A DNA stretch of 32,000 bases from Trichlorobacter lovleyi SZ (GTDB lineage: Bacteria > Desulfobacterota > Desulfuromonadia > Geobacterales > Pseudopelobacteraceae): positions 3,600,001 to 3,632,000 of the forward strand of contig NC_010814.1 of the NCBI RefSeq assembly GCF_000020385.1. The letters are read 5' to 3'. Under the pieces are notes generated by a model that ran no database searches, was not told where the DNA came from, and was given only the letters and a program-made list of their open reading frames with translations. The position numbers were made by a program, and so were the translations under genes. Below, in pieces: positions 1,087 through 20,854 of the stretch (its first letter is position 1; every line of letters starts with the position of its first letter).

Positions 1087-1097
1087 TATGGGGCAAA

Positions 1098-4283: not shown

Positions 4284-6304
4284 TGCAGCAAGCTGCCTCC
4301 CCTACTGTCCTGTTGGCCTACGCCCCTTACCCGGTGACAACGGCGGTGTACCTCGAACGTGCGCTACGGAAAAGCTGCCGGGTAACCACCGTCGGACCGC
4401 TGTTTCCCGATGAAAAAATTGAGGAATGGCACCTGCAGAATCTGCGGGTACCGTTTTTCCAGCAGGATATTGTCAGCTCTCCAGAACCTGACATGGCCGA
4501 ACTACTGGCTGCCAACCCCTCCCTTGTACCTGATCTGTACCTGTGGGTGGAGTCGGTGGGCGGCCATTTCCCCCAGAATCTTGCCGCCCTCCCCTGCCCC
4601 AAGGCCTGCTATCTGGTTGATACCCACCTCAATCTGGACTGGCATCTGCAGTGGGCCGGGCAGTTTGACTTCATCTTCCTTGCCCAGCGGGAATACCTGG
4701 AACGCTTCAGGGCAGCGGGGCTCAACGCCCACTGGCTTCCGCTTGCCTGCGACCCGGAGATTCATAGCGCAGCCAACGTCGTGAAACAGCATGATCTCTC
4801 CTTTGTGGGCAGCCTGTCCCACAATCCCCGCCGCCAGGAGCTGCTGCGCCGGCTTGATGAGACCATCGGGGTCTATTGTGAACGTTGCTGGTGGGATGAT
4901 ATGGCCCAGGTCATCTCCTCGTCACGGATAACCTTCAACAGCGCCGTCAAAAACGACCTGAACATGCGTGTCTTCGAGGCACTCTCCATCGGCAGCCTGC
5001 TGCTGACCGACCCTGCCCCCAACAGTGGCCTGGAAACCCTGTTCGCGGATGGCGAAGATCTTGCCCTCTACCGCACCGATGGAGAACTGCTTGAAGTAGC
5101 TGATTTTTACCTCAGAAACGACCTGCTGCGGGAACAGATCGCCGCCAGGGGTCGTCAGATCGTCCATGCCGCCCACACCTATGACCACCGCATTGCAGAA
5201 CTGCTGGATGTCATGACCGGCAAGCGGGCAACCACCTCAACAGCGGAAGAGCTGCGGGCACGTTCCCTGGCGCCACTTTCTCCGCCCTTCAGCTCCATCA
5301 CCGGCAGCAGCATCGATCTCAGCAGCGCTTCCCGGAGCTTTGTGATCGCAGTCCTCGACTACTCACCGGCCAGCCAATACAATATTGCCACCCTCTTGCA
5401 GGATCTGGAGCAGATACCGGGCGATGTCCTGGTCATCTTCAACGACGAAGGGGTGGCTGCCGACCTGAAAGGGCATCCCCGCATCACCCGTTATGCCATC
5501 ATGAAGGAGAACGTCGGGGTGGCGCGGGCCTGGAACGTGGGTATCGAGATGGCCGCAACTCCCCATGTCTTTATCCTGAATGCCGACCTGCACCTGGAGC
5601 TTGACGCAGTTCGTGAAATGGAAGAGCGGCTCTGCGCACTTGAACGGGCCGCCTGTACCGGCCCGCAGGGATCATTTGTCAATTACCGCCTGACCAAAGA
5701 TTATCTCTACTTTGACAAAGGCACCTTTGACCAGCCGGTTGCCGTGGATGCGGTCTCCGGCTTTCTGTTCGCCGTCAAACGCAACCTGTTCGGACCCGGC
5801 GGACTGAAGTTTGAAAACGCCTACACCCCCTGCTACTTTGAAGAATGGGATCTGGGACTGCAGATCCGCCAACTCGGCCTGCAAAGCTGGATTGTCCCCA
5901 CCAGCGCCTACGAACATCACTGGGGTGGCAGCATCGCTGCCCGGCGTGAAATCAGCTGTATGGGACGGAGTGAATCAGCCCAGGAGATCCTGCAACGCAA
6001 CCGGGTCCTGTTCCTCGCCAAGTGGCGCAAGGCCGGTCATCTGCCGGAAAGCGGCTGGCGGAGCTTTGGTCCGGACTACGCCCTTACAATGCTACAGCAG
6101 GGCCAAACCGACCACGCCCGGGCCGTGATCCAGTCGCTGGCCATCAGTTATCCCGACATCCCCGAGGTACAGGCACTGGGCATCGGCCTGGCCCTGCAGG
6201 ACAACGATATGAAGATCGTAGCCGAGATCAGCAAACGACTGCACCGGACTGATCCCCGCTTTGATCTGGAAAAATTCCTGAAGAAGGCGGTGGCGCAACC
6301 ATGA
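4283..6304 (+). CDS. Bifunctional glycosyltransferase: CgeB-like GT domain + GT2 (GT-A) domain + short C-terminal helical/TPR-like tail
   Basis: 673-aa ORF. ATG 4283 shares its A with the upstream TAA. aa 1-315 carry the CgeB-like motifs (LLAYAPYPVTTAVYLERAL, PDLYLWVESVGGH, CYLVDTH, WLPLACDPEIH, SFVGS, LNMRVFEALSIGSLLLTD, AHTYDHRI). aa ~345-580 are GT2-like (FVIAVLDYSP, VLVIFNDEG, VARAWNVGIE, FILNADLH, EEWDLGLQ). Confidence 0.85.
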   Translation: MQQAASPTVLLAYAPYPVTTAVYLERALRKSCRVTTVGPLFPDEKIEEWHLQNLRVPFFQQDIVSSPEPDMAELLAANPSLVPDLYLWVESVGGHFPQNLAALPCPKACYLVDTHLNLDWHLQWAGQFDFIFLAQREYLERFRAAGLNAHWLPLACDPEIHSAANVVKQHDLSFVGSLSHNPRRQELLRRLDETIGVYCERCWWDDMAQVISSSRITFNSAVKNDLNMRVFEALSIGSLLLTDPAPNSGLETLFADGEDLALYRTDGELLEVADFYLRNDLLREQIAARGRQIVHAAHTYDHRIAELLDVMTGKRATTSTAEELRARSLAPLSPPFSSITGSSIDLSSASRSFVIAVLDYSPASQYNIATLLQDLEQIPGDVLVIFNDEGVAADLKGHPRITRYAIMKENVGVARAWNVGIEMAATPHVFILNADLHLELDAVREMEERLCALERAACTGPQGSFVNYRLTKDYLYFDKGTFDQPVAVDAVSGFLFAVKRNLFGPGGLKFENAYTPCYFEEWDLGLQIRQLGLQSWIVPTSAYEHHWGGSIAARREISCMGRSESAQEILQRNRVLFLAKWRKAGHLPESGWRSFGPDYALTMLQQGQTDHARAVIQSLAISYPDIPEVQALGIGLALQDNDMKIVAEISKRLHRTDPRFDLEKFLKKAVAQP

Positions 6305-9300
6305 CCCATCCCACTGCCCTGACACTGCCGTCACCGCCGTTCATGGACCCCCACGAGGTTGAGGCGTTTGCTCTTCTGCTGCGAGGCTTTAGCAACCCGC
6401 TTCAGGCATTTGAATGGGGCTCCGGTGCCAGCACCCTCTACTATGGCTCCCGGCTCCCGTTCGGCAGCTTCTGGCAGTCGGTCGAGCATGATGCAGAATG
6501 GCATCAGCATACCGCCCAGGAAGCTGCCCGGTGGGATGCGCACCGGATCGCCGTCAGACATGTCCCGCCGGATCGCATCTGGCACGATACCGGCGATGAT
6601 GGCGATTACGCCACCTTCAGGAACTATGTCCTTTTCCCCACCACCCTGGGCAGGCAGTTTGACCTGATCCTGGTGGATGGCCGTGCCCGGGTCGCCTGCA
6701 TGGCTGTCGGCTGGGAGCTGTTGCAGGATGACGGCGTCATGATCCTGCATGATGCCGAGCGTCCGGAATATCAGCCGGGCATTCCAACGGGCTGCTATCA
6801 GATCCGCCTGTCCGCCTATTCAGCCCGTGTCAACGGCCCGGTTGAACTCCTGCTGATGGCCAAGAAGGCTGATCTGCTGGTCAGGCTTGAGCGTCAGCTC
6901 CGTCGCAACATGCCACCTCAGGTCAGTATCGACAGCAACCTGCCGCCGGCAGCACCGGCGCCCCGGATACTGTTCCTCAACACCTACTACCAGGCGTTTA
7001 TGAACGGCCTGTATGCCCGGCAGCCGGAACTGGATACGCTCCCCTATTATCAGCAAAAGCGGGTCCTGATTGACAGCTGCTTCGGTGACAGCGACTTTTA
7101 TTCAACCGGCATGGCATCTGCCGGCTGGGAGGCTGACGAGTTGATCATCAATGCCTCCCGGCTTCAGGAGACCTGGGCCCGGGAGCAGGATTTCCCCGTG
7201 GACGATTGTAACGCCATCCTGCTGGAGCAGATTCGACGCTACCGTCCTGACGTGCTCTATCTGCAGGATCTCTCACCGGCGACCGAGGCATTCATTACTG
7301 CTGTACGCCCCTTTGTCCACTTGATTGTTGGCCAGATCGCCTCACCCATACCGGAACAGACCCATCTGCAGGGGTTTGACCTGATCATTTCATCCTTCCC
7401 CCATTTTGTGAAACAGTTTCGCAAAATGGGGATTACGGCTTATTATCAGCCTCTTGCCTTTGAACCACGCATACTAAATCGTTTACCGCAGGTGGTTCGA
7501 GAGATTCCGGTCAGCTTTGTTGGCGGCATCTCCCCCTACCATGGCACCGGTCTGACAGTTCTTGAGACAATAGCCAAAAGTATCCCGCTGGATGTGTGGG
7601 GCTATGGCGCCCAGGCCCTCCCGCCTGAGTCGCCGCTCAGACAGCGGCACCATGGCGAGGCCTGGGGATTGCAGATGTTTTCCCTGCTGGCCGGCTCCCG
7701 GATCACCCTCAATCGGCATATCGATGTTGCTGAAAATCATGCCAACAACATGAGGCTGTTTGAAGCCACCGGCTGCGGCGCCCTGCTGCTGACCGACTAC
7801 CGCGACAACCTTGGGGAGCTGTTCGAGATCGGCAGGGAGGTGGTGGCATACCGCAGTCCGGAAGAGGCGGTCTTACTGGCCCGCTATTATCAGCAACACC
7901 CCGAAGAGGCGGCAGCCATTGCCAGGGCCGGACAACAGCGTACCCTGCGGGACCACTCCTATCAGCGCCGCATGCACCAGACTGCGCAGATACTGGAACG
8001 GCATCTGCGCTATCGCACTGAACGCGAGCTTTATCCCACGGTTGATTATGCACGCATCAGCTATGGCTACAACAACCTGCAAAAGAACGAGGTACTGCCC
8101 GCCATGGAACAGGGCTGGCAGGATGCCGGCATTCCTGCCAAACAAAGGGCATTGGTGCAGCTTGAGCTTGAAGCCATGTACCACGGCCGGACACCACAGG
8201 TATTCCAGGTCCTTGCAGAATTGCTGCGACCCGTAGTAACGCCCGGCATGGAGCTGCTTGAGATCAGCTGCGCCAGCGGCTACTACTCTGAAGTTATTGA
8301 ATACCTGCTGTCCAGGCAGGTCAACTATACCGGTGTCGATTACTCCGAGGCAATGATCAGGATGGCACAGGATTATTATCCCGACCGGCGTTTCAGGGTG
8401 GCTGACGGAGCGGCACTCCCCTTTGCCGATCAGTCATTTCCGCTGGTTATTTCAGGCTGTGTCCTGTTGCACACCGCTGACTACAGCAGACATATTGCAG
8501 AAACCGCCCGGGTGGCACAGGAGTGGATCGTTGTCCATCGCACCCCGGTCTTTCGTTTACGGCCAACGCAATATCTCTCCAAACTGGCCTATGGCGTTGA
8601 AACCGTCGAAATGCGCTTTAACGAGCAGGAACTGCTGGGTCATTTTATGCAGCATGGTTTTGAGCTTTTACGGACCTTGACCTATGCGGAGCACCCGGAG
8701 GAAGATGGGTATGAAGTCAGCTACCTGCTCAAGCGCACCGGACCAGTCTCCGCTTCCAAAGACAAGCATAAACCGGCAATTCCGGCCAAATCCCCGAGTA
8801 TAGCCCCTAATCGCCAGGGGCCGGTTGTACTGGTATCCCGGGCAATAGCCTTTACCTTTCCCCTGGCCTATGCCTACCTTGCCGGACAGCTGCGTTCTCA
8901 GGGAGAAGAGGTCAAGCTGCTGTTTAAGGAGATGCCGTTTGAGCTGTTGGTGAAGCAGATCATGGCACTCAACCCACTGCTCGTTGGCTTCGGAAACCTG
9001 TATCCCGAACTGGAAGAAACCCGCAGACTGATCCGGATGCTGGATGAGGCGGGCAGAACATTTCCGATCGTGGTTGGCGGCCAGATGGTCAGCCCGATCC
9101 CGGAGTTTGCCGTCCGGATTACCGGAGCCGACTATGGTGTGATCGGCGAAGGGGAACTGATCCTTGCCGAACTGGTCACGAGGCTGAGAAACGGCAGTGA
9201 TGTTTCTGATCTGAAAGGCCTTGTCATCAGAGAGGGCGAGGATATACGCAACAACGGTCCCGGGGCCTGTATTGAAAATCTTTCAACCGGCCTGCCGCCA

Positions 9301-10167
9301 ATCCCTTATGATCTTTTTCCAATTGACCAGTGGCTGCCGATCGGCGAATGGTATGCCCGCCATCTGCCACAGGCACAATGGCATATTGCAGACCGGGTGA
9401 TCAATGTGCACGGCGGCAGGGGCTGCCCCTTCAGCTGCAACTTCTGCTATCATCACAGCAAGCCGCGCTATCGCGACATTGCGGTCATGATGGAAGAGGC
9501 GCAGGAGGCGCTGCAGCGCTTTGATGCCAACATGCTTTATTTTTCCGACGATCTGGTGCTGGCGACTCCCAATCGGGCACGACAGCTGGTTGAGGCGATA
9601 CACCGGCTTGACCGGCCAATCTCGTTCTCGGTCTCAACCCGCTTTGACATTCTGGCCAGGATGGATGATAGCCTGTTGCAGGAGCTGAAACAGGCCGGCT
9701 GCAGGACCATGGGGCTTGGGCTGGAATCCGGCTCTGACCGGATTCTGAAAATCATCGGGAAGAACTGCACGGCTGAACAGATTGAAGACGGACTGGAGCG
9801 GTTGCACCGCACAGGTATCTACCCCACCACCTCAATCATGACTGGCCAGCAGTCTGAGACACTTGAAGATGCTGCTGCATCAATCGCCTTGATGCAGCGT
9901 GCAGTACGGCGCGACCCCTTCATCAACTTCGCCTTTACCCTTGCCACACCGTTCCCCGGCTCTGCACTCCATGATCTGATTTTTGAAAAAGGTCTTCTCA
10001 AGGACGAGCAGGAGTTTTATGACCGCTATTTCTCAACCAGTGGAGATTTCAAACAGGTTATCAACCTGTCAGCCATGAGTGACACCGAAGTCATGGCAGC
10101 ACATTACGAACTTGAGCGGATCTATGCAGAAGAAAAGAAAAATCAGGCCTGTTCACTTAGACTGTAG
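6301..10167 (+). CDS. Four-module fusion: Rossmann MTase-like domain + CgeB-like GT + class I SAM MTase (type-11-like) + B12-binding radical SAM domain
   Basis: 1288-aa ORF. ATG 6301 overlaps the upstream TGA (ATGA). (i) aa ~30-170: FEWGSGASTLYY, FDLILVDGRARVAC, GVMILHDAE. (ii) aa ~220-565: ILFLNTYY, VSFVGG, NNMRLFEATGCGALLLTD, DHSYQRRM. (iii) aa ~640-800: LLEISCASGYY, YTGVDYSEAMI, LPFADQSFPLVISGCVLLH. (iv) aa ~840-1288: B12-binding-like FPIVVGGQMVS / GVIGEGE, then a radical-SAM core with GGRGCPFSCNFCYH. Confidence 0.85.
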   Translation: MTHPTALTLPSPPFMDPHEVEAFALLLRGFSNPLQAFEWGSGASTLYYGSRLPFGSFWQSVEHDAEWHQHTAQEAARWDAHRIAVRHVPPDRIWHDTGDDGDYATFRNYVLFPTTLGRQFDLILVDGRARVACMAVGWELLQDDGVMILHDAERPEYQPGIPTGCYQIRLSAYSARVNGPVELLLMAKKADLLVRLERQLRRNMPPQVSIDSNLPPAAPAPRILFLNTYYQAFMNGLYARQPELDTLPYYQQKRVLIDSCFGDSDFYSTGMASAGWEADELIINASRLQETWAREQDFPVDDCNAILLEQIRRYRPDVLYLQDLSPATEAFITAVRPFVHLIVGQIASPIPEQTHLQGFDLIISSFPHFVKQFRKMGITAYYQPLAFEPRILNRLPQVVREIPVSFVGGISPYHGTGLTVLETIAKSIPLDVWGYGAQALPPESPLRQRHHGEAWGLQMFSLLAGSRITLNRHIDVAENHANNMRLFEATGCGALLLTDYRDNLGELFEIGREVVAYRSPEEAVLLARYYQQHPEEAAAIARAGQQRTLRDHSYQRRMHQTAQILERHLRYRTERELYPTVDYARISYGYNNLQKNEVLPAMEQGWQDAGIPAKQRALVQLELEAMYHGRTPQVFQVLAELLRPVVTPGMELLEISCASGYYSEVIEYLLSRQVNYTGVDYSEAMIRMAQDYYPDRRFRVADGAALPFADQSFPLVISGCVLLHTADYSRHIAETARVAQEWIVVHRTPVFRLRPTQYLSKLAYGVETVEMRFNEQELLGHFMQHGFELLRTLTYAEHPEEDGYEVSYLLKRTGPVSASKDKHKPAIPAKSPSIAPNRQGPVVLVSRAIAFTFPLAYAYLAGQLRSQGEEVKLLFKEMPFELLVKQIMALNPLLVGFGNLYPELEETRRLIRMLDEAGRTFPIVVGGQMVSPIPEFAVRITGADYGVIGEGELILAELVTRLRNGSDVSDLKGLVIREGEDIRNNGPGACIENLSTGLPPIPYDLFPIDQWLPIGEWYARHLPQAQWHIADRVINVHGGRGCPFSCNFCYHHSKPRYRDIAVMMEEAQEALQRFDANMLYFSDDLVLATPNRARQLVEAIHRLDRPISFSVSTRFDILARMDDSLLQELKQAGCRTMGLGLESGSDRILKIIGKNCTAEQIEDGLERLHRTGIYPTTSIMTGQQSETLEDAAASIALMQRAVRRDPFINFAFTLATPFPGSALHDLIFEKGLLKDEQEFYDRYFSTSGDFKQVINLSAMSDTEVMAAHYELERIYAEEKKNQACSLRL
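9424..9447 (+). other. Radical-SAM [4Fe-4S] cluster motif CX3CX2C (CPFSCNFC) within CDS 6301..10167
   Basis: In-frame Cys codons at 9424-9426, 9436-9438 and 9445-9447. The motif follows a Rossmann-like B12-binding-type segment, as in class B radical SAM enzymes. Confidence 0.8.
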
Positions 10168-10190
10168 GCACATATAAGAGAGAGTTCAAT

Positions 10191-11102
10191 ATGACCATCA
10201 TTGATGAAATCCTTGAAAGTAACTACTTCACCGACAACCCTCCGGTACTGCTCGATATCGGGGCCTCCACTGCGATCCACCCCAAATGGCAGCCGTTGGC
10301 CAGGCACTCGATCTGTATCGCCTTTGATGCCGATGACCGGGAGATCGGTTATGCGGCCACCGCTTCAAAGGGGTATAAGAAACTGCACCTGTTCAACAGT
10401 CTGGTAAGCGACGGGGCAGCTGCGGAGGCAGATTTCTTCCTGACCAGGTTCCCCCTCTGCTCAAGCCTGCTTGAGCCGGACCAGCAGAGCCTTGCACAGT
10501 ATAATTTCGGCGACCTGTTTGAGCTGGACAAGGTCGTCCGGCTGAAAACCGTGCAACTGAGAGAGGCCCTCAAAGCGGCAGGTGTGGCCAAAGTAGACTG
10601 GTTCAAGACCGACTCCCAGGGCACTGACCTGCGCCTGTTCAACAGCCTGGGCAACAACCTGATCAAACAGACGCTGGTGGCGGAATTTGAACCGGGTATC
10701 GTTGACGCCTACAGGGGGGAGGATAAACTGCACGACCTGATGAGGTTTATGGACAGCCAGCCTTTCTGGATGAACGACATGCATATCAAGGGGACCCAGC
10801 GGATCAGTCAGGAGGCCCTGCGCAGATGTTTTCAGGATCATACCGGGCAGCTCAGGGAGGGCATGTCGCTCAAGACCTCCCCCTGCTGGAGCGAAGTCTC
10901 CTATTTTAACAGTTTTGGGCCTGAAGCCGACTGGCTGAACCAGCGGGATTACCTGCTGGGCTGGATATTTGCCCTGATTGAAGGGCAGTATGGTTTCGGG
11001 CTGGACATTGCGCTGCAAGGCGGAAAACGATTCGGGACAGCGGTCTTTGAACAGCTGGCCGAATGCTCCGTTGAACTGCTGACCAGAGACAGCTCGAGAT
11101 AG
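10191..11102 (+). CDS. FkbM-family-like SAM-dependent methyltransferase (tentative)
   Basis: 303-aa ORF with a purine-rich stretch (aagagagag) upstream of the ATG. LLDIGAST resembles the FkbM DIGAN.G motif, and VDWFKTDSQGTDLRLF resembles the FkbM (I/L)K.D.EG.E..(V/L)L motif. Confidence 0.6.
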   Translation: MTIIDEILESNYFTDNPPVLLDIGASTAIHPKWQPLARHSICIAFDADDREIGYAATASKGYKKLHLFNSLVSDGAAAEADFFLTRFPLCSSLLEPDQQSLAQYNFGDLFELDKVVRLKTVQLREALKAAGVAKVDWFKTDSQGTDLRLFNSLGNNLIKQTLVAEFEPGIVDAYRGEDKLHDLMRFMDSQPFWMNDMHIKGTQRISQEALRRCFQDHTGQLREGMSLKTSPCWSEVSYFNSFGPEADWLNQRDYLLGWIFALIEGQYGFGLDIALQGGKRFGTAVFEQLAECSVELLTRDSSR

Positions 11103-11114
11103 AAGGACAACCAC

Positions 11115-12122
11115 ATGGAATCATTCAACAACAAACGGGTATTGATCACGGGCGGCCTCGGTTTCATCGGTTCAAACCTGGCTATCCGCCTGGTGCAACT
11201 GGGGGCCCAGGTCACACTGGTGGACAGCCTGATCCCTGAATACGGCGGTAATCTCTGGAATATTGAACCGGTCAAGGAGCAGGTACGGGTCAATATCTCC
11301 GACGTCCGGGATGAACATGCCATGAAGTACCTGATTCAAGGCCAGGACTTCCTGTTCAACCTGGCCGGCCAGACCAGCCACCTTGATTCAATGCAGAACC
11401 CCTATCCGGACCTTGAGATCAACGCCCGCGCTCAGCTTTCGATCCTTGAGGCCTGCCGCCACCACAATCCCGCCATCAAGCTGGTTTTTGCCAGTACCCG
11501 CCAGATGTACGGTGCCCCCCGCTACCTGCCGGTGGATGAAAAACACCCCCTGGCCCCGGTTGATGTGAACGGCATCAACAAGATGGCCGGAGAGTGGTAC
11601 CACCTGGTATATAACAACGTCTACGGCATCCGGGCCTCGGTGCTGCGCCTGACCAACACCTATGGCCCCCGCATGCGGGTCAAGGATGCCCGCCAGACCT
11701 TTCTGGGTATCTGGATCAGAAATATCCTGACCGGCCAGCCGGTGCTGGTCTTCGGGGATGGCAGACAGGTCCGCGACTTTAATTACGTTGACGATGTGGT
11801 TGAAGCAATGCTGCTCTGCGCGGCATCTGACGCTGCCAACGGCGAGATATTCAATCTGGGTGCGGATGACCCGGCCAACCTGCAGGATACCGCCCAGCTG
11901 CTGGTCCAGGCTGCCGGCCAGGGCAGCTTTGCACTGGTGCCGTTTCCGCCGGACCGCAAGGCGATCGACATTGGCGACTACTACGCCGATTACGGCAAGA
12001 TCAAGGCGACACTGGGCTGGCAACCGGCTGTAGCGCTTCAGGAAGGGCTGCAACGCACCCTGGCCTACTACCGCACCGACGGCGCACACTACTGGGAGGA
12101 GGCAGACCATGCCCGCTCCTGA
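11115..12122 (+). CDS. NAD-dependent sugar-nucleotide epimerase/dehydratase (extended SDR family)
   Basis: 335-aa ORF, RBS aagga 9-13 nt upstream. N-terminal VLITGGLGFIGSNL Rossmann motif, FASTRQMYG, LRLTNTYGPR, VRDFNYVDDVV and LGWQP are typical of the GalE/RmlB/UXS-like fold. The position aligned to the catalytic YxxxK reads NGINK (see findings). Confidence 0.85.
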   Translation: MESFNNKRVLITGGLGFIGSNLAIRLVQLGAQVTLVDSLIPEYGGNLWNIEPVKEQVRVNISDVRDEHAMKYLIQGQDFLFNLAGQTSHLDSMQNPYPDLEINARAQLSILEACRHHNPAIKLVFASTRQMYGAPRYLPVDEKHPLAPVDVNGINKMAGEWYHLVYNNVYGIRASVLRLTNTYGPRMRVKDARQTFLGIWIRNILTGQPVLVFGDGRQVRDFNYVDDVVEAMLLCAASDAANGEIFNLGADDPANLQDTAQLLVQAAGQGSFALVPFPPDRKAIDIGDYYADYGKIKATLGWQPAVALQEGLQRTLAYYRTDGAHYWEEADHARS

Positions 12123-12193: not shown

Positions 12194-13267
12194 ATGAAAG
12201 GTAACCGGGACATGCGCTGGTACTGTACCTACTGTGATCGCAACTATCTGGTCAGGCTCCTTGCCCTGGCGGATTCCCTGACCCGGCATGAGCGGCAACC
12301 GTTTACCATCCTCGTGGTCTGTCTGGACGAGCTGACCCGTACCTTATTGAACCACCTTCAGCTACCCAATATCCGAAGCATCGGCCTGCACGAGCTTGAA
12401 TCCCGTGATCACCAGCTGCGTGAGGCCAGAAATACGCGCAGTCTGGTTGAGTACTACTGGACTCTCACCCCGACCGTGCTGCTGTTTCTTTTTGAACAGC
12501 ATCCGCAGATCGACCGTCTGACCTATCTGGATGCCGACCTGTTCTTCTTCAGCTCGCCGGAGCCGATGTTCTCGGAGGCACCCGATGCCTCCGTGTTAAT
12601 TCACAGCCACCGCTTTGCAAAAAGATATACCATGCTTGAGGCGTACGGCACCTACAACGTGGGGCTACTCAGTTTTGTCAGGAATACCGAGGCGCTGGGC
12701 ATTCTACGCGAGTGGCGTGGACAATGTCTGCACTGGTGTTTTGCCAGCCTGGAGGATGGAAAATTCGGCGACCAGCTCTACCTGAACGATTGGCCGCAAC
12801 GGTTTGCCGGCGTCCATGTGCTGCAGCACCCGGGAGTCGGGGTAGCCCCCTGGAACCAGAACGATGCCAGCCTGGCAACCGCTGCTACAGGAGAACTGCT
12901 GGTGGATGGCGCCCCGCTGATCTTCTACCACTTCCATGCCCTGGAGATATTGTCTCCTGAGGTCTATCTGCCGGCAAAGCTGTTACATTACCGTTTTGAG
13001 CTGCCGGTCCTGCGCCATTGCTACCTTCCCTATGTTCGGACCCTGCAGCAGGAGCTGGCACGATTGGACTCACTGCTACCGGGATCAACCTGCGGCATAG
13101 CGCACCAGACCGGCGCTGTTGCCCACACCCTGCTGGCCACACAATCGAGCGCACTGATCCTGGCCGAGCATCTGCCGGGCTTTTCGCAGAGCCCCCTGGC
13201 TGACGGCTGGGTTGTCGGCAAGGTGCCGGTTGAACTACCTGACGCAGGCACTGTACAAACGGCATGA
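12194..13267 (+). CDS. GT-A fold glycosyltransferase (GT8 / nucleotide-diphospho-sugar transferase-like)
   Basis: 357-aa ORF; an alternative ATG at 12212 has aagg upstream. DxD-type motif YLDADLFFF, YNVGLLSF and FGDQLYLNDW resemble GT8-like retaining transferases. Confidence 0.6.
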   Translation: MKGNRDMRWYCTYCDRNYLVRLLALADSLTRHERQPFTILVVCLDELTRTLLNHLQLPNIRSIGLHELESRDHQLREARNTRSLVEYYWTLTPTVLLFLFEQHPQIDRLTYLDADLFFFSSPEPMFSEAPDASVLIHSHRFAKRYTMLEAYGTYNVGLLSFVRNTEALGILREWRGQCLHWCFASLEDGKFGDQLYLNDWPQRFAGVHVLQHPGVGVAPWNQNDASLATAATGELLVDGAPLIFYHFHALEILSPEVYLPAKLLHYRFELPVLRHCYLPYVRTLQQELARLDSLLPGSTCGIAHQTGAVAHTLLATQSSALILAEHLPGFSQSPLADGWVVGKVPVELPDAGTVQTA

Positions 13268-14314: not shown

Positions 14315-16105
14315 TCAGTGTCTGGACCGTTCAGACCAGACCTGCGTAAAGGCCGCCTCAAGATCCCGGGTAAACGCAACCGTATCGCAGATCGGCGATG
14401 CTGCCATCTGCTGCCGCAGACGGCTTCGCAGGGTAGACAGACCGGCCAGATTACTGCCCCAGGCAAGCGCTGTAGCAACATAGGCATCCTCACTGGCAAC
14501 GATCCAGTCTGCCACCCCCGCCTGCGTGAGATGACTCTCGGCATGGCGCACAAAAGGCGGCCGCTTGCCGCGTAACACCAGGGTCGGCACCCCCATCCAG
14601 AGTGCCTCAAGAACGGTCACCCCCCCTTGATAGGGAACCGGATCCAATGCGATATCAACCTGATGATAGGCTGCCAACAGCTCTCTACGGGGGGCATACC
14701 CCTCCAGCAGGATCCGGTCTGACGACACCCCTTCAGCTGCCAGTTTTTCCCAATAAGCGCTGCGGACCAAGGGGTCATCAAATCCCTTTGACTTCAGGAA
14801 CAGCCGCGATCCGGGCAGGGCACGCAGCACCGCCCCCCAGAGCGCAAGGGTGCTGCTGTTTAGCTTTTGCACTGTATTGAATGACCCAAAGGTGATGCAT
14901 CCGGTTGTCAGTGCAGGCAAGCTCCCTACCAGCGGCGCATCCGCAGGGGGTCGGAAGCTGACATAGCCGTGGGGCAGGTAGAGCGGGCGTTCCGTATAGT
15001 ACGGGCGATCTTCCGGCGGTAATGCCACCTGATCGGCAAGGATATGATCCATCGCCTCCAGGCCGGTACTCCCCGGATAGCCTCCCCAGGTGATCTGCAG
15101 CGGGGCCAGTCTCCGGGCAAAGAGGTCAAGGTAATTCCCCCCGGTATGGCCCGCCATGTCTACCGCAATATCGAGCTGCCAGGCGCGGATCTGGCGTACG
15201 ATCTCCAGGCGGTCAGTGCCATGCAGCACAACCCAATGTTCTGCTGAGCGTTTCAGGGCCGCAGTCAGCTCATCCCGCTCTGTATAGGGTGAAAAAACCA
15301 CGATCTCAAAGCGATTCCGGTCATGGGCCGGAATCACCCCTTCCAGAAAATAACCCACGGGATGGGCGTACAGATCGGCAGAGAGATAGCCGATCCTGAT
15401 CCGCTTACGTGTACCAGGGCTCAAGGGTGGCGCCGGTGCTGTCTCAATCCGGCATGTTTCCTCAAACCGGCGATGCATGCCGGCGATGAATTCACCGCTT
15501 AGACTATGGAGCTGTTTTGCCACCCTGCTGATCCGCACGGCCAGTCCCGGAACTGCTGCACACATGTCCAGTTCCCGGGCAACAACCTGCGGCGCAATGG
15601 TACGAACCATCAGCAAGGTATAGAGCAAATTACTGACAGTGGCCCGGGCGTGCCGGTCAAGCTCCACTGAGAGGCCATACCAGAGCAGGGCCGCTTCTGC
15701 CTCACCGGCCATGACCAGGGCATTCCCCAGACCGGACAACAATCCGGGATTGACAGGGTCGGCAGCAACCGACCGGCGCAGGGCCGTCACGGCAGCAACA
15801 TACCGTTTGCCCTGCTCCAGCATCCTGGCATAGCCGAGCGCCCCGTTTGCATAGCCCGGCATCTCCTCAAACAGACCACGGTACGCCGTCTCAGCCTCAG
15901 CATAACGGCCAAGCTTTTCAAACAGCCAGGCACAGTTGTTTTGCAGGGTATATTCGTGCGGACAGGCAGCAAGCAGCTCCTGAAAAATGTCCAGAGCCTG
16001 CTGATAGTTGCCGCTGGAGACGAGGGAGGTCGCCTGGGCAAAACGTTTCTCAAGCAGGGCTGCTGCCCCTGCAAACAGGGGAGAGCAAGAATCGCTTGCA
16101 TTCAC
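14315..16105 (-). CDS. TPR-repeat protein with C-terminal GT41 (OGT / SPINDLY-type) glycosyltransferase domain; candidate flagellin glycosyltransferase (FlmG-like architecture)
   Basis: The track ORF starts at GTG 16123. The in-frame GTG at 16105 is preceded by AAGGAG plus 8 nt and makes a GTGA overlap with the upstream stop, so I prefer it. The N-terminal ~230 aa are TPR-like. The C-terminal half carries IRIGYLSADLYAHPVGYF, DMAGHTGGN, APLQITWGGYPGSTGL, ITFGSFN and VDIALDPVPYQGGVTVLEALWMGVPTL, typical of COG3914/GT41. Confidence 0.8.
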   Translation of the reverse strand: MNASDSCSPLFAGAAALLEKRFAQATSLVSSGNYQQALDIFQELLAACPHEYTLQNNCAWLFEKLGRYAEAETAYRGLFEEMPGYANGALGYARMLEQGKRYVAAVTALRRSVAADPVNPGLLSGLGNALVMAGEAEAALLWYGLSVELDRHARATVSNLLYTLLMVRTIAPQVVARELDMCAAVPGLAVRISRVAKQLHSLSGEFIAGMHRRFEETCRIETAPAPPLSPGTRKRIRIGYLSADLYAHPVGYFLEGVIPAHDRNRFEIVVFSPYTERDELTAALKRSAEHWVVLHGTDRLEIVRQIRAWQLDIAVDMAGHTGGNYLDLFARRLAPLQITWGGYPGSTGLEAMDHILADQVALPPEDRPYYTERPLYLPHGYVSFRPPADAPLVGSLPALTTGCITFGSFNTVQKLNSSTLALWGAVLRALPGSRLFLKSKGFDDPLVRSAYWEKLAAEGVSSDRILLEGYAPRRELLAAYHQVDIALDPVPYQGGVTVLEALWMGVPTLVLRGKRPPFVRHAESHLTQAGVADWIVASEDAYVATALAWGSNLAGLSTLRSRLRQQMAASPICDTVAFTRDLEAAFTQVWSERSRH

Positions 16106-18105
16106 CGGCTGTTCTCCTTGCACCAGCGTTGCCAGATCTGACGGTAGACTCCCTCCAGATGGCAGGTGAAGGTACTATTATCAGCAAGGGGCGAAGCCAG
16201 CAGCCGGTCCCGCAAAGAGCTCCTTAGCGCTGCCAAACGGACGGTGTCAGCGGCAAGGGCAACGGCAAGAGAACAATACTCTTCCGGCGAATTACCAATC
16301 AGTTCAGGCAGTCCAACGCTGTGCAGCAGACTGACGCCGACCCGCGAAACATGGCTGTCGCCAGCCCTGGTCACCACCGGCACCCCCATACAGAGCGCTT
16401 CACAGGTAGTGGTGGTACCATGATAGGGAAAGGTATCCAATGCAATATCAATGGTATGGTACCCCTCAAGGTTTTCCACCACGGACCGGGCATGCCCCAA
16501 TACAGAAATCCGCTCCGGAGCAACCTGATGCCGCAGGAAGAGCGGGGCAATATCACGCACAAAACGATCGTGGGAAAGCCCCCTGGCCCTGAAAACAAGG
16601 TGGGAATCAGGAACTTTGGCAAGTATCCGTGCCCAAAGGTCAAGGATGTCAGGCGTCACTTTCTTGAAGTTACTGAAAGAGCCAAAGGTGACATACCCGT
16701 TTGTCTGACAAGGCAATGATCCCACAGCCGGAAAATCAGCTCCGGGACGATAGCAGAGAAAGCTGTCCGGCAGACGGATCAGCTCTTCGGTGTGAAACGG
16801 ATCGGTCACGCCCGGAGGGTCGGCCCAGGCATCACTGATCCGGTAATCCATCTCCATCAGACCGGTACTGTTTGGATAGCCGATCCAGCTGACCTGCAGC
16901 GGTGCCGCCCGCCCGGCAAACAACGGCAGGCGGTTCAGGGCGGTATGCCCTGCCAGATCCACCAGTACGTCAATCTGATCCTGCAGAAGCAGTTCCTGCA
17001 CCGACGCATCATCCATTGCCGAACAATCACGCCAGATCACGTGGTGCTGTTCTTTCAGCTGGCGTGTCACAACATCGGGCTTTTTAACATCCGAGTAGCA
17101 ATAGACTGTTACCTGAGCTGGATCGTGAGCAGCCAGAACCGGCTGGAGAAAGAATACGACGGCATGAATCTTCAGGTCGGGAGAGAGGTAGGCAACCCTG
17201 ATCGGGCGGTCAGGATCAGGATCGTTGGCAAAATGTTTCATTGCCACAGGCTCAAAATACTGTTGGCCCCAGTTTTTATGCTCTGCAGCTATGGCTGCTG
17301 CCGACCAGTTGGCTGAATAATGCAACATAAACAGACGTGTGCTGGCCAAGGCACGCTTCTGGAAGAGATGGTTTGAACTCGCAATGGCCAGGTCAAAGCA
17401 GGCAATCGCATCATCAACCATCCAGAGCTCACTCAGGCAATTGGCAGTGCTGCCAAGCAGTTCGGCCCGTTCATCCGGCCTTACAAGCTCCAGCACCCGC
17501 TGATAGCAGGCCAGAGACTCCTCGAACCGGAACATCTTCCCGTACACTATTGCCAGATTCCCGATCAAGGCAACATTGTCTGAATCAAGGTGAAGACCAT
17601 GGCGGCAGGAGTGGAGCGCTCCATCATTGTCATCGCTTGCCAGACAGACGGCTGTCAGGTTGATCCACGAATTGAGATGCTGCGGATCAATCGCAAGCGC
17701 CTGCTCAAACGCATGCCTGGCCGGCTCCATGCGCTCGAGCCGCTGCAACAGGACCCCTCGGTTGTAATAAAGGTTTACGGTTGTTTCACCAAGTGCCTCA
17801 GCTTCGTCAAAAGCGGCCAACGCCTCTTCAAAGCACCCCAGTTCCTGCAGAGCCAGTGCCAGGTTTATCCGTAAAAAGCCAATCTCAAGAGCCAGATTAC
17901 AGGCCTGCCGGTACAATATGGCTGCCTCATCCCAGGAGCCTGTGGCATACATGATCGTTGCCAGCATGAAGGTAGCCTCAAGGTTACCACTGTCCAGCTG
18001 CAGGATTCTGCGGCAGATCAGCGCTGCTTCTTCATGGAATCCCTGACGGTTCAGGGTCTCTGCTTGATCAAGCGAACACAGTATATCCGGTTGCATCTGC
18101 TCCAC
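16102..18105 (-). CDS. TPR-repeat protein with C-terminal GT41 (OGT / SPINDLY-type) glycosyltransferase domain; paralog of 14315..16105
   Basis: 667-aa ORF starting at GTG 18105, with GGAGG (18116-18120, minus strand) about 10 nt upstream. The N-terminal ~300 aa are TPRs. The C-terminal half has IRVAYLSPDLKIHAVVFF, DLAGHTALN, APLQVSWIGYPNSTGL, VTFGSFS and IDIALDTFPYHGTTTTCEALCMGVPVV, collinear with the downstream paralog. Confidence 0.8.
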   Translation of the reverse strand: MEQMQPDILCSLDQAETLNRQGFHEEAALICRRILQLDSGNLEATFMLATIMYATGSWDEAAILYRQACNLALEIGFLRINLALALQELGCFEEALAAFDEAEALGETTVNLYYNRGVLLQRLERMEPARHAFEQALAIDPQHLNSWINLTAVCLASDDNDGALHSCRHGLHLDSDNVALIGNLAIVYGKMFRFEESLACYQRVLELVRPDERAELLGSTANCLSELWMVDDAIACFDLAIASSNHLFQKRALASTRLFMLHYSANWSAAAIAAEHKNWGQQYFEPVAMKHFANDPDPDRPIRVAYLSPDLKIHAVVFFLQPVLAAHDPAQVTVYCYSDVKKPDVVTRQLKEQHHVIWRDCSAMDDASVQELLLQDQIDVLVDLAGHTALNRLPLFAGRAAPLQVSWIGYPNSTGLMEMDYRISDAWADPPGVTDPFHTEELIRLPDSFLCYRPGADFPAVGSLPCQTNGYVTFGSFSNFKKVTPDILDLWARILAKVPDSHLVFRARGLSHDRFVRDIAPLFLRHQVAPERISVLGHARSVVENLEGYHTIDIALDTFPYHGTTTTCEALCMGVPVVTRAGDSHVSRVGVSLLHSVGLPELIGNSPEEYCSLAVALAADTVRLAALRSSLRDRLLASPLADNSTFTCHLEGVYRQIWQRWCKENSR

Positions 18106-18313: not shown

Positions 18314-19141
18314 ATGGCTATCGGCGATATTTCGCTCACGTCCGGTATGCGGAGCAACCTGCTTTCACTGCAAGGGACCGCAAAATCAATCGACCAGACC
18401 CAAAACCGGCTTTCAAGCGGCAAACGGGTAAACACACCACTGGACAATCCGACCAACTACTTTGCAGCCCAAGGGCACGTAGAACGCGCCTCTGACCTGG
18501 CTGTACGCAAAGATGGCATGGCAGAGGCGATCCAGATGGTCAAGGCAGCCGACACCGGCATCAAGGGAATCACCTCACTGATCGAATCAGCCAAAGGGGT
18601 GGCCACGGCAGCGCTTGCCACCAGTGACACAAATGAACGTTCAACCTATTCTGCCACTTTTAACACCCTGCTCAATCAGGTCTCCATGATGGCCAGCGAC
18701 TCCGGCTATCGCGGTATCAACCTGCTGACCAACGGTTCACAAACCGTTGAATTCGGACAGCGCACCAATGCGTCCACCCTGCAGATCACCGGTTTCAACG
18801 CCACTGCTGCCGGTCTGACCATGCAATCGGCCGTTGCCACGGCCTGGTCTGCATCAGGTAATTCAGCCATCAACTCATCCTCTTCCGAGCTTGAGTCCGC
18901 CCTGAGCTTTCTGCGTACCAAATCTTCAGCCCTGTCGGCTAACCTGAGTGCGGTAACCACCCGTCAGGACTTCACCAACTCCATGATTAACAATCTGCAG
19001 ACCGGTGCTGATAACCTGACCCTGGCCGATACCAACGAAGAAGGCGCCAACATGCTGATGCTACAGACCCGTCAGAACCTTGGCATTACCTCTTTGAGCA
19101 TGGCCTCGCAAGCGGCCCAGGCGGTTCTGAAGCTATTTTAA
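18314..19141 (+). CDS. fliC: Flagellin (short, 275 aa, Caulobacter/Geobacter-type lacking a large variable domain)
   Basis: RBS AAGGAGG 6 nt upstream of the ATG. Conserved flagellin N-terminus (SLTSGMRSNLLSLQ, RLSSGKRVN.PLDNPTNYF) and C-terminus (TRQDFTNSMINNLQTGADNLTLADTNEEGANMLMLQTRQNLGITSLSMASQAAQAVLKLF). Confidence 0.95.
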   Translation: MAIGDISLTSGMRSNLLSLQGTAKSIDQTQNRLSSGKRVNTPLDNPTNYFAAQGHVERASDLAVRKDGMAEAIQMVKAADTGIKGITSLIESAKGVATAALATSDTNERSTYSATFNTLLNQVSMMASDSGYRGINLLTNGSQTVEFGQRTNASTLQITGFNATAAGLTMQSAVATAWSASGNSAINSSSSELESALSFLRTKSSALSANLSAVTTRQDFTNSMINNLQTGADNLTLADTNEEGANMLMLQTRQNLGITSLSMASQAAQAVLKLF

Positions 19142-19177
19142 CCGCCCCATAAAAACAGGATAACAAATATTTTTAAT

Positions 19178-19215
19178 TTTTTTACTCAAGGAGTTGCGCC
19201 TGCTGTCCGATGAAG
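19178..19215 (+). promoter_or_regulatory. Sigma-28 (FliA)-like promoter of flagellin gene 2
   Basis: TTTTTTTACTCAA-N16-TCCGATGAA. TCAA at 19187-19190 and TCCGA at 19207-19211. Same architecture as the promoter at 18182-18218. Confidence 0.55.
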
Positions 19216-19276
19216 TATACTAAGTGGCAACAAAGCGGCAAGAATGCCGTGATAAAATCCAGAAAGGAGCATCACC

Positions 19277-20104
19277 ATGGCTATCAACGACATCTCCCTC
19301 ACCTCCGGCATGAGGAGCAACCTGCTTTCACTGCAAGGCACCTCAAAACTGATTGACCAGACCCAGACCCGCCTCTCTTCAGGCAAAAAGGTTAACACCC
19401 CGCTGGATAACCCGACCAACTATTTTGCAGCACAAGGACATATGGAGCGGGCTGCTGACCTTTCCGTACGTAAAGACGGTATGGCTGAAGCAATTTCCAT
19501 GGTTAAGGCCGCCGATACCGGTATCAAGGCCATTACCTCCCTGATTGAAGCCGCAAAAGGTGTCGCCGGTGCTGCATTGGCAACCAGTGACGCTGCTGAG
19601 CGTTCCACCTACACCACCACCTTCAACACCCTGCTCAGCCAGGTATCGCAGCTTGCTTCCGACTCCGGCTACCGGGGCACCAACCTGCTGACTGCCGGTT
19701 CACAAACCGTTGAATTCGGTCAGCGGACCAACGCTGCTACCCTGCAGATCAGCGGCTTCAGCGCTACTGCAACCGGCCTGACCATCCAGTCTGCTGTTGC
19801 AACTGCCTGGTCAGCATCAGGTAACTCAGCCATCAACTCATCCTCTTCCGAGCTTGAGTCCGCACTGAGCTTCCTGCGTGCCAAGTCTTCATCGCTGTCT
19901 GCAAACCTGAGCGTTGTTACCACCCGTCAGGACTTCACCAACTCCATGATCAACACCCTGCAGACCGGTGCTGACAACCTGACCCTGGCCGATACCAACG
20001 AAGAAGGCGCTAACATGCTGATGCTGCAGACCCGTCAGAACCTGGGCATCACCTCCTTGAGCATGGCTTCCCAGTCAGCTCAGGCAGTTCTGAGACTGTT
20101 CTAA
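19277..20104 (+). CDS. fliC: Flagellin (275 aa), tandem paralog of 18314..19141
   Basis: RBS AAAGGAG upstream. About 32 substitutions out of 275 aa versus the upstream copy by my hand alignment. Same conserved flagellin termini. Confidence 0.95.
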   Translation: MAINDISLTSGMRSNLLSLQGTSKLIDQTQTRLSSGKKVNTPLDNPTNYFAAQGHMERAADLSVRKDGMAEAISMVKAADTGIKAITSLIEAAKGVAGAALATSDAAERSTYTTTFNTLLSQVSQLASDSGYRGTNLLTAGSQTVEFGQRTNAATLQISGFSATATGLTIQSAVATAWSASGNSAINSSSSELESALSFLRAKSSSLSANLSVVTTRQDFTNSMINTLQTGADNLTLADTNEEGANMLMLQTRQNLGITSLSMASQSAQAVLRLF

Positions 20105-20209: not shown

Positions 20210-20854
20210 ATGGAAGTTCAGACAAGCAACGGAGTCAATACTGCGTATCTTTCAGTGCAGCAGACGACGAGCCAGAAGCAGGCCCAGCAATCACAGCAGA
20301 CACAAACAGCTGAGACACAACAGAATACGCCGGACAGCATGGCGCTTAATCCTGCGGCCCAACCGGCAGATCAGGTCAAGCTTTCTTCTTCGGTTACGGT
20401 GAAAAACCTTGACACGGTCAAAGCGATTGAACAGATGCACACCCGCATGAACCAACTGGTAAAAGGAACACGCGAGACGAATGAGGCCTTAAACAAGGCT
20501 GCCGAGCAGGTTAACTTCATGCAGGGCAACCTTACCAGCATCATCAAGAATTTCCCGCCTTTTCCCATTGACAGCAAAGAGCGCCAAGAGCTCCTGATGA
20601 GCTACACCTCAATCCGTCAGGAAATGATGAAAATGACTATACCGCAACCGCCACCGCCAATGTATGAGCAGGTCAAACACGAGTGGGACAAGACGGTGGG
20701 GCAGAATGGCCAGATGCTCTCCAGCGCCGTACCGGCGCTTGAGACAACCAGTAGTGACACCCAGGTAAACGAGGCGGCCGTCCAGCTTGAAAATGCCAGC
20801 GCCGGTCTTGCAAACCTGAGTTCGAGTGTCACAAAGGCGCTGATCGGCGGTTAA
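20210..20854 (+). CDS. Hypothetical protein, flagellar-locus associated (Q/T/S-rich N-terminus; no family recognised)
   Basis: 214-aa ORF with RBS AAGGGAG 7 nt upstream, located immediately after the flagellin terminator. Its stop lies 4 nt before the flbT ATG. I found no FlaF, FlaG or FlgM signature motifs. Confidence 0.7.
   Translation: MEVQTSNGVNTAYLSVQQTTSQKQAQQSQQTQTAETQQNTPDSMALNPAAQPADQVKLSSSVTVKNLDTVKAIEQMHTRMNQLVKGTRETNEALNKAAEQVNFMQGNLTSIIKNFPPFPIDSKERQELLMSYTSIRQEMMKMTIPQPPPPMYEQVKHEWDKTVGQNGQMLSSAVPALETTSSDTQVNEAAVQLENASAGLANLSSSVTKALIGG

Follow-up and report, generated by a model that had tools for sequence, protein, structure and literature searches.

The window analysed here is a 32 kb stretch of Trichlorobacter lovleyi DNA that carries flagellin genes with glycosyltransferase (GT) genes on both sides. 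Its target open reading frame (ORF) encodes a multi-enzyme protein in which a GT domain and two methyltransferase-type domains are fused to a C-terminal module of the B12-binding radical S-adenosylmethionine (SAM) type, here abbreviated B12-rSAM (rSAM, radical SAM). Comparison with near-identical and related genomes shows that this module is a dispensable, strain-exchangeable cassette, and its relatives point to a tailoring role in glycan biosynthesis.

The target ORF is a single ATG-initiated frame with zero internal stops. Its start codon overlaps the stop codon of the upstream gene (ATGA, 6301-6304), so that the two probably belong to one operon, and it is a member of a same-strand gene run extending from the window edge to 14300. 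On the + strand, the order is three other CgeB-like multi-domain GTs, the target ORF, a 303-residue protein, a short-chain dehydrogenase/reductase (SDR), a 357-residue GT8-like protein and a GT1. These are followed by two TPR + GT41 genes (-), and then by two flagellins of 275 residues, a 214-residue unknown and FlbT (+). After FlbT, the - strand encodes a 1435-residue protein with four GT2 domains and TPR repeats, a TPR protein, a GT2, a methyltransferase, a LegC/PseC-like aminotransferase, a cupin-like protein and another methyltransferase. The coordinates of the main features are collected in Table 1.

Table 1 Features of the target ORF and its neighbours in the window (aa, residues of the target ORF; MT11, Methyltransf_11; NDP, nucleoside diphosphate)
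Feature	Position	Strand	Support or remark
Complete four-module ORF, 1288 aa	6301..10167	+	Type strain SZ counterpart of 1288 aa (ACD97069.1 / WP_012471393.1), same 90% cluster
N-terminal class I methyltransferase-like domain, aa 1-215, Methyltransf_24-like, motif EWGSGAST	6301..6945	+	Weak Pfam; PDB 3cvo; PF13578 in homologues
CgeB-like GT-B glycosyltransferase core; DUF3880 (weak) aa 367-410, Glyco_trans_1_2 aa 421-561	7399..7983	+	Pfam
Class I SAM methyltransferase domain, PF08241/PF13649/PF13489, aa 635-790	8203..8670	+	Pfam, alignment
Strain-variable 'tailoring slot': MT11 tail, linker and whole B12-rSAM module	8658..10190	+	Alignment of window with L035 and L032
Pro/Ala/Lys/Ser-rich linker, MT11 domain to B12 domain	8737..8820	+	818-aa alleles stop just ahead of the linker
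B12-binding-type Rossmann domain, aa 850-958	8848..9174	+	Pfam; 5 strands and 5 helices in model
Radical SAM core domain, aa 1039-1195	9415..9885	+	Pfam, profile and fold comparison
CPFSCNFC, CX3CX2C [4Fe-4S] motif, C1042, C1046, C1049	9424..9447	+	CNFCYHH invariant across orthogroup
303-aa FkbM-like (weak) protein, conserved orthogroup partner	10191..11102	+	Weak FkbM signal, tblastn
SDR, NDP-sugar 4,6-dehydratase/epimerase-like	11115..12122	+	Profile matches, tblastn
GT-A / GT8-like retaining glycosyltransferase, 357 aa, YLDAD DxD motif	12194..13267	+	Predicted structure, tblastn
Two TPR + GT41 (OGT-like) proteins, divergent from flagellin genes	14315..18105	-	Candidate protein-directed flagellin glycosyltransferases
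Two tandem 275-aa flagellin genes (18314-19141, 19277-20104), presumed glycosylation target	18314..20104	+	Profile matches

Domain architecture of the target ORF

A first-pass annotation, made from the sequence alone, had read four modules in this ORF, and the uninterrupted frame and the Pfam domains bear it out. All four of the profile hidden Markov models (HMMs) it had named were matched: Glyco_trans_1_2 (PF13524; GT1_2 below) at E 4.9e-37 with 127.5 bits against a cut-off of 25, Methyltransf_11 (PF08241; residues 653-739) at E 5.9e-14, B12-binding (PF02310) at E 5.1e-16 with 59 bits against a gathering score of 32.1, and Radical_SAM (PF04055) at E 6.6e-21 with 75.6 bits against a cut-off of 29.5. 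The peptide motifs it had quoted (LLEISCASGYY, LPFADQSFPLVISGCVLLH and CPFSCNFC) are present, the last spanning residues 1042-1049 and beginning with the C1042 codon at nucleotide 9424. DUF3880, which lies ahead of the PF13524 domain in CgeB-type proteins, remained under its cut-off in the target ORF (16.9 bits against 25.2). The weakest assignment is the N-terminal domain, where the proposed Rossmann methyltransferase-like identity held in part: residues 1-215 match PDB 3cvo ('methyltransferase-like protein') at E 1.6e-5, a GxGxG-type motif is visible, and many homologues of ~820 residues carry PF13578 at this region, but Methyltransf_24 itself stayed below its cut-off (E 0.009). The existing annotation of WP_012471393.1 is generic, naming only a 'B12-binding domain-containing radical SAM protein'.

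The GT module shares its Pfam match (PF13524, 127 bits) with the Bacillus subtilis spore maturation protein CgeB, a protein of the PF13524/DUF3880 type. CgeB, however, is a single-module protein of spore crust glycosylation, whereas here the GT lies between two methyltransferase-type domains and is joined to a radical SAM enzyme.

A genuine and recurrent fusion

The fusion is genuine and not an assembly artefact. Several T. lovleyi assemblies made independently of one another encode forms of 1288 or 1289 residues, the complete type strain SZ genome being one of them, and 22 further clusters at 90% identity carry GT1_2, MT11, B12-binding and radical SAM domains on one polypeptide (39-77% identity, 1092-1985 residues). 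The cysteine triad, whose loss in orthologues the first-pass annotation had considered, is invariant in the alignment of the module's orthogroup (A2, described below) and at least 90% conserved in the alignment of fused homologues (A1), the sole exception in the latter probably being the permuted protein P0025, which is not alignable.

The alternative to be weighed here was that the fusion stems from misassembly or a frameshift, or that the gene is a pseudogene in decay, and the occurrence of module-less 818-residue forms within the same 90% cluster could be read in its favour. Those forms, however, are a clean cassette replacement with sharp breakpoints and no frameshift, the fused form recurs across independent assemblies and diverged clusters, and the window module keeps every residue that is invariant in the orthogroup. 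This alternative retains next to no probability, and we regard it, like the sequencing-derived fusion that the annotation had allowed for, as already refuted.

Domain order is not fixed. In P0025 the B12-rSAM part is N-terminal and GT1_2 + MT11 are C-terminal, P0137 consists of MT11 and rSAM only, and P0256 combines rSAM, TPR and MT11. The repeated recruitment of radical SAM modules by the GT-methyltransferase core is 'Rosetta stone' evidence that these activities belong to one pathway, and the repeated, independently ordered fusions to this core suggest that the enzyme acts no earlier than glycosyl transfer itself. In nine clusters (P0046, P0047, P0049, P0050, P0057, P0079, P0080, P0090 and P0114) the same GT1_2-MT11 core is joined to a different radical SAM class, PF04055 with SPASM PF13186; the order in P0047 is MT24, rSAM/SPASM, GT1_2 and MT11, with rSAM/SPASM inserted between the MT24-like domain and the GT.

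An exchangeable slot

Over window positions 1-8600, 3 mismatches separate the window from the locus L035 (T. lovleyi GCA_050171295.1). From 8658, within the last ~30 codons of the MT11 domain, the two no longer match; identity is back exactly at 10191, the ATG of the 303-residue gene, from where it continues at 99.5% up to 19229; the flanks of the slot are 99.5-99.7% identical between these two genomes. In the window, the slot holds the linker and the B12-rSAM module fused to the ORF, at a guanine-plus-cytosine (GC) fraction of 0.546. In L035 (12358-13418, 1061 bp), it holds the stop codon of an 818-residue protein and then a separate 273-residue PF08241 class I methyltransferase, and its GC fraction of 0.404 makes this segment look foreign. 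In L032 (~12424-12479), a locus of ~79% DNA identity to the window, window positions 8730-10190 are without counterpart and 56 bp lie between the flanking alignments. Among the members listed for the T. lovleyi 90% cluster, six have 1288 or 1289 residues and five have 818 or 826.

As the neighbouring genes are all unchanged, the reaction of the module does not seem to be needed by the rest of the pathway, which suggests a peripheral decoration rather than a core step. The alternation of a B12-rSAM and an ordinary methyltransferase in one slot also mildly favours methyl transfer by the module.

The C-terminal module and its family

The module was studied with residues 830-1288 alone as the query. 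Among the best 120 matches listed, identity is 56-76% and almost every protein stands alone, with a length of 430-600 residues. In an exhaustive search of 50%-identity representatives, bit scores drop from 405 (44% identity) to 242 (35% identity), and below this gap lie thousands of generic B12-rSAM proteins; the gap indicates that the family of the module is a discrete orthogroup. We delimited the orthogroup by at least 44% identity over the full module and by invariant CNFCYHH and (I/V)GGQM(V/F)(S/T)P motifs, all of which are found in the window module. Its members are unnamed and uncharacterised stand-alone B12-rSAM proteins of ~450-570 residues. Among them, CNFCYHH, GGQM(V/F)(S/T)P, GEGE and a G-N-L-Y-P-E loop vary little or not at all. 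Besides the triad, a single further cysteine is conserved, which argues against an auxiliary cluster. In one member, P0259 (783 residues), the B12-binding domain and the radical SAM core are separated by an intein (PF14890).

The AlphaFold2 model of the module (predicted local distance difference test 87, predicted template modelling score 0.85) has strand and helix alternating five times over module residues 13-135, followed by a barrel. Class I B12-rSAM enzymes are built with an N-terminal Rossmann B12-binding domain of five strands and five helices ahead of the rSAM domain (PMC12931638), and the module fits this architecture by its model and by the PF02310 score. The top Foldseek matches are cobalamin enzymes, namely TsrM (E 1e-22), the protein glutamine C-methylase QCMT/MgmA (9CCB; E 1.7e-21, ~19% identity) and OxsB, CysS and TokK (E down to 3e-17); AprD4 is matched at E 1.7e-19, and many radical SAM structures share the fold. 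For TsrM, QCMT, TokK and OxsB (E 1e-22 to 3e-17), the query template-modelling scores (TM-scores) are 0.61-0.66. These four share with the module the N-terminal five-strand, five-helix Rossmann domain followed by the CX3CX2C barrel; they differ in being 16-21% identical and in acting on tryptophan, protein glutamine, carbapenem and nucleoside, respectively for TsrM, QCMT, TokK and OxsB, and the extra C-terminal domains of TsrM and TokK are missing from the module. In sequence, the B12 domain aligns to TsrM, QCMT and OxsB, and AprD4 aligns over the rSAM half only. The class B identity that the first-pass annotation had given to the module is upheld at the HMM and fold level, and the module is almost certainly a functional class B-type radical SAM enzyme.

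Family membership is what suggests that the module binds cobalamin and methylates its substrate, C-methyltransferases being the most represented group of B12-rSAM enzymes (PMC12931638), and on balance we consider a cobalamin-using methyltransferase probable. The residue facing the lower side of cobalamin is hydrophobic in radical methylases (TokK W76, Mmp10 L322) and polar in non-radical or non-methylating enzymes (TsrM R69, OxsB N186). In a profile alignment, the loop after strand 3 that holds TsrM R69 is matched to the invariant G-N-L-Y-P-E loop in our module, where Leu or Tyr may be the counterpart.

Distribution and gene neighbourhoods of the orthogroup

A scan of species-representative genomes, in which the orthogroup motifs given above were used and recovered, gave 29 orthologue loci (L002-L030), with 47-76% identity to the module. 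The hosts of the orthogroup include Geobacteraceae and other Desulfobacterota, Actinomycetota, Lentisphaerae/Victivallales, Omnitrophota, Bdellovibrionales, Cyanobacteriota and many Patescibacteria (including Microgenomates, Uhrbacteria, Daviesbacteria, Falkowbacteria, Saccharibacteria and Zambryskiibacteriota), as well as the methanogenic archaea Methanospirillum and Methanoregula.

Neighbours were counted by tblastn of each window protein against the 29 loci. The most constant neighbour is a homologue of the 357-residue GT8-like protein (22 of 29 loci), followed by a DegT-type aminotransferase (18) and the 303-residue protein (12); the SDR has a strong match at six of these loci, and it is a partner at all Geobacteraceae fused loci. 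A pooled Pfam scan of 145 neighbour ORFs from 26 loci returned 17 GT2, 10 class I methyltransferases, 9 SDR epimerase/dehydratases, 7 FkbM methyltransferases, 6 DegT, 5 GT1_2, 5 Methyltransf_24, 4 ABC transporters, 4 additional B12-rSAMs and 4 GT8. A typical cassette, that of L012, has the order FkbM methyltransferase, GT2, rSAM, 273-residue unknown, FkbM-like protein, GT8-like protein, FdtA 3,4-ketoisomerase, DegT and GT2. No flagellin lies within ±10 kb at any of the 29 loci, and a flagellin-specific family is rejected on this ground. Glycan gene neighbours in many phyla instead suggest a general tailoring enzyme of glycan biosynthesis, and that the module works in glycan biosynthesis or tailoring is very likely. 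The orthogroup appears to be horizontally mobile, its usual form being a stand-alone enzyme whose gene lies in surface-glycan clusters alongside those of NDP-sugar enzymes, a transferase of the GT8-like type and an FkbM-like protein.

These neighbourhoods also bear on the target of the module. A prominent place among its sequence and fold matches is taken by QCMT/MgmA, and the module could accordingly be imagined to methylate a side chain of the flagellin polypeptide, in the way that QCMT and Mmp10 act on methyl-coenzyme M reductase. The identity to QCMT is only ~19%, however, the orthogroup sits in sugar-nucleotide and glycosyltransferase clusters away from flagellin, and the fusions are repeatedly to GT and sugar-type methyltransferase domains, which makes a side-chain methylase very improbable.

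The proteins encoded directly 3' of the target ORF are the partners that recur in these clusters. For the 303-residue protein there was no Pfam match, and a weak FkbM-like signal was seen in both the window protein and its L012 homologue. The 357-residue protein barely reaches Pfam GT8, and direct PDB sequence searches with both proteins returned nothing; its GT8-like assignment therefore comes from structure prediction, in which the model (predicted local distance difference test 90) has a GT-A fold closest to LARGE1, XXYLT1, glycogenin and LgtC, with the YLDAD motif invariant. Its family has >2000 matches, often joined to TPR repeats, GT2 or FkbM domains. Proteins combining GT8-like and FkbM domains are found at the P0008 locus and in P0458.

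The flagellin island

The flagellin genes and flbT (20859-21278) lie ~8 kb downstream of the target ORF. Adjacency to flagellin is retained in four related loci, namely the window, L035, L032 and L037, the last with a fused orthologue 72% identical to the target, and the order in L035, L032 and L037 is GT1_2 genes, target, 301/303-residue protein, SDR, GT8-like, GT1, TPR-GT41 and flagellin. TPR-GT41 genes form a pair in L035 and L032 and occur as one copy in L037, L036, L038 and L002; in L002, L036, L038 and the P0008 locus (the last read from its gene table only), a TPR-GT41 gene adjoins the cassette. The flagellin glycosylation context proposed by the first-pass annotation is thus a real but lineage-specific one: by synteny it stands for the T. 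lovleyi lineage, and it does not extend to the module's family as a whole.

Across the 32 kb, transporters, flippases, polymerases and multi-pass membrane proteins are all missing, and all of the encoded proteins are predicted to be soluble. This fits a cytoplasmic pathway that glycosylates a later-exported protein such as flagellin, and not polysaccharide export. The island resembles the Caulobacter FlmG and Maf-type islands in having GT and sugar-nucleotide genes around flagellins and a TPR + GT gene adjoining fliC; the Caulobacter flagellin glycosyltransferase FlmG reportedly has a TPR + GT architecture. It differs from them in its GT41/OGT-like GT domain and in the presence of CgeB-like multi-domain GT-methyltransferase proteins and B12 rSAM enzymes. 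Neither Maf nor a complete pseudaminic or legionaminic acid pathway was found in the window, where LegB/LegC-like proteins appear under cut-off only.

The same chemistry could also serve a different glycoconjugate, for example a polysaccharide of the cell surface or a glycoprotein other than flagellin, with the flagellin genes merely adjacent. ABC transporters and O-antigen-like genes do accompany stand-alone orthologues, some hosts of which lack bacterial flagella, and distant fused homologues have no flagellin in the flanks that were available. In T. lovleyi, however, export, flippase and polymerase genes are missing from the soluble complement described above, GT genes stand on both sides of the flagellins, the two TPR-GT41 genes are divergent from fliC, and synteny is retained down to 72% protein identity. 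We therefore hold another carrier to be unlikely, and a flagellin-linked glycan to be the likely carrier in T. lovleyi.

Other features of the island were noted. The first ORF of the window (259-1086, 275 residues, TTG start; window 1-1086) is the 3' portion of a gene that runs past the window edge; the L035 homologue of this gene has 436 residues and starts ~224 nucleotides upstream of the window. The 214-residue ORF (20210-20854) between the second flagellin and flbT is conserved in L032 and gave no Pfam or NCBIfam match and no FlaF match; flaF usually adjoins flbT, and this ORF occupies the corresponding place. The 1435-residue protein just downstream of flbT (21215-25522, -) has its TPR repeats C-terminal to the four GT2 domains and is a further very large multi-GT enzyme of the island. 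Upstream of the first GT gene of the island, a second, paralogous stand-alone B12-rSAM of 537-539 residues is encoded with two small methyltransferases (L035:314-3343, immediately upstream of the 5' end of the window; L032:335-3358; L001:14-3325), and the island probably holds two B12-rSAM enzymes. That this stand-alone protein is the split-off module of the 818/830-residue alleles was considered and rejected, since its score to the module is 129 bits (L001 copy tested) against >400 for true orthologues, as expected of a paralogue. In related Geobacteraceae-type clusters, the fused protein stands beside a 699-residue B12-rSAM, 815- and 367-residue rSAM-SPASM proteins and formyltransferase and TylC3-like C-methyltransferase domains (L034, the P0014 locus) or beside a 904-residue rSAM-SPASM-TPR protein (L038, the P0004 locus).

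Proposed function

Building on the observed architecture, fold class, recurrence of the fusion, cassette exchange and gene contexts, we tentatively propose, at just under an even chance, that the target ORF encodes several tailoring enzymes in one protein, as part of an island for the O-glycosylation of flagellin in the cytoplasm, and that with its module a flagellin-linked sugar can optionally be methylated by a radical route that depends on cobalamin; cobalamin use, methyl transfer, the sugar substrate and flagellin as the carrier are each presumed in this proposal. The CgeB-like GT-B domain of the core (residues 1 to ~815) would transfer a sugar onto the growing flagellin-linked glycan, and the two methyltransferase-type domains of the core would methylate heteroatoms (O or N) of the sugar. 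The C-terminal module (residues ~830-1288) would follow a mechanism of the GenK/GenD1 type, with two SAM and cobalamin. A first SAM would methylate cob(I)alamin and a second would be reductively cleaved to a 5'-deoxyadenosyl radical, which would take a hydrogen from an unactivated carbon of the sugar or of a sugar substituent, and the substrate radical would then receive the methyl group from methylcobalamin. The modification would be an optional, strain-specific decoration. The substrate may be a nucleotide-sugar rather than a protein-linked glycan, and that the fused GT installs the modified sugar is our assumption.

Parts of this proposal have precedents. GenK and GenD1 C-methylate sugars of already assembled oligosaccharides amid conventional N- and O-methyltransferases (PMC12689558). 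As for the supply of the cofactor, type strain SZ has a complete de novo cobalamin pathway (PMC3403914). GenK and GenD1 have the B12-domain and radical SAM architecture in common with the module; they differ from it as stand-alone enzymes of actinomycete secondary metabolism, with no GT fusion and no role in protein or cell-surface glycans. Neither orthology between them and the module nor a curated model at cut-off was detected.

Several points weigh against the proposal. Within the core, motif I of the PF08241 domain (window 8257-8290, residues 653-663) reads LEISCASG here and in the 818-residue allele P0125, with Ser in place of a Gly that is kept in at least 90% of fused homologues, which may weaken SAM binding; the T. 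lovleyi alleles P0121 and P0126 have the consensus LEIGCASG. The module reaches the cut-off of none of the curated NCBIfam B12-rSAM families, the models for PhpK, HpnR, HpnJ, BchE, QCMT/MJ0865, BzaD, ApyD, ladderane, TsrM, AprD4 and ArsL all staying below theirs; the best of the NCBIfam models is the ladderane-type TIGR04072 with 109.5 bits against 360, and the others fall far short. Class B enzymes also perform cyclisation, ring contraction and other non-methylating reactions, and Patescibacteria, where many members of the orthogroup reside, are generally without cobamide synthesis. The plasmid with most of the cobalamin pathway is not present in all T. lovleyi strains (PMC3403914). As to the carrier, flagellin is missing from the flanks available for the distant fused homologues (L002, L003, L034, L036, L038 and the P0008 locus). 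Finally, each step of the favoured chemistry is deduced from sequence and fold comparisons.

Some of these points favour a sugar reaction other than methylation, catalysed with or without cobalamin by a radical SAM enzyme that carries a B12-like domain, for instance AprD4-type diol dehydration or deoxygenation, epimerisation or OxsB-type ring contraction. Of the solved structures, AprD4, the 1,2-diol dehydratase of the apramycin pathway, compares best with the module both in TM-score (0.69-0.71) and in profile E-value (1.5e-12), and its length is similar; this likeness matters because AprD4 works without cobalamin and has an aminoglycoside sugar, paromamine, as its substrate. Both AprD4 and ArsL bind no cobalamin and yet cluster among B12-rSAM sequences (PMC12931638), and AprD4 illustrates that a Rossmann domain of related type may be devoid of cobalamin. 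The abundance of the orthogroup in Patescibacteria points the same way, as do the NDP-sugar 4,6-dehydratase-like and FdtA/DegT deoxy-amino-sugar genes that are often adjacent. The AprD4 likeness, however, is limited to the rSAM half, its family model is reached with 38.9 bits against a cut-off of 500, and the N-terminal domain scores above the PF02310 cut-off and aligns to cobalamin-type domains of TsrM, QCMT and OxsB. Further, in the sister strain the slot is taken by a conventional methyltransferase and in the relative it is empty, with downstream genes unchanged; this is easier to explain for a peripheral decoration than for a step in making a sugar precursor. Non-methylating chemistry is, on this evidence, rather unlikely, and the radical C-methylation or other radical tailoring of a glycan that the first-pass annotation had suggested keeps the support of the class B fold and the glycan context, its methylating part being left without a family model at cut-off and with AprD4 as the best structural match.

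Relevance for flagellar glycans and the enzyme family

The enzyme class itself is already known, and sugar-modifying cobalamin rSAM enzymes have been described from antibiotic pathways (GenK, GenD1). In agreement with the first-pass annotation, which was aware of no flagellin-glycan pathway with a cobalamin rSAM enzyme, our full-text searches of a paper library returned no report of radical SAM or B12 enzymes in flagellin glycosylation, and none of cobalamin rSAM enzymes in bacterial protein glycosylation or surface glycans more broadly. Searches on Geobacter flagellin glycosylation and on CgeB with flagellin gave nothing relevant, and flagella, motility and glycosylation are unmentioned in the T. 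lovleyi genome paper (PMC3403914) and in the 2026 review of the enzyme class (PMC12931638). Likewise, the cross-domain B12-type rSAM orthogroup in surface-glycan clusters, its repeated fusion to a GT-methyltransferase core and the swappable cassette in a flagellin island were not found in the literature searched.

It is possible, at somewhat less than even chances, that the module represents the first cobalamin rSAM family devoted to C-methylating cell-surface or protein-linked glycans in primary biology, spread horizontally across Desulfobacterota, Patescibacteria, Omnitrophota, Victivallales and methanogenic archaea, and that in T. lovleyi it serves as a plug-in cassette for strain-specific flagellin glycoforms, alternating with a conventional methyltransferase. 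The two near-identical T. lovleyi genomes and the close relative, differing in the slot, constitute a natural isogenic-like contrast, which makes the question of function directly testable. A C-methylated sugar, if this is indeed the product, would extend radical methylation chemistry to glycoproteins, and would tie variation of the flagellar surface to cobamide availability in an organism known for its corrinoid metabolism.

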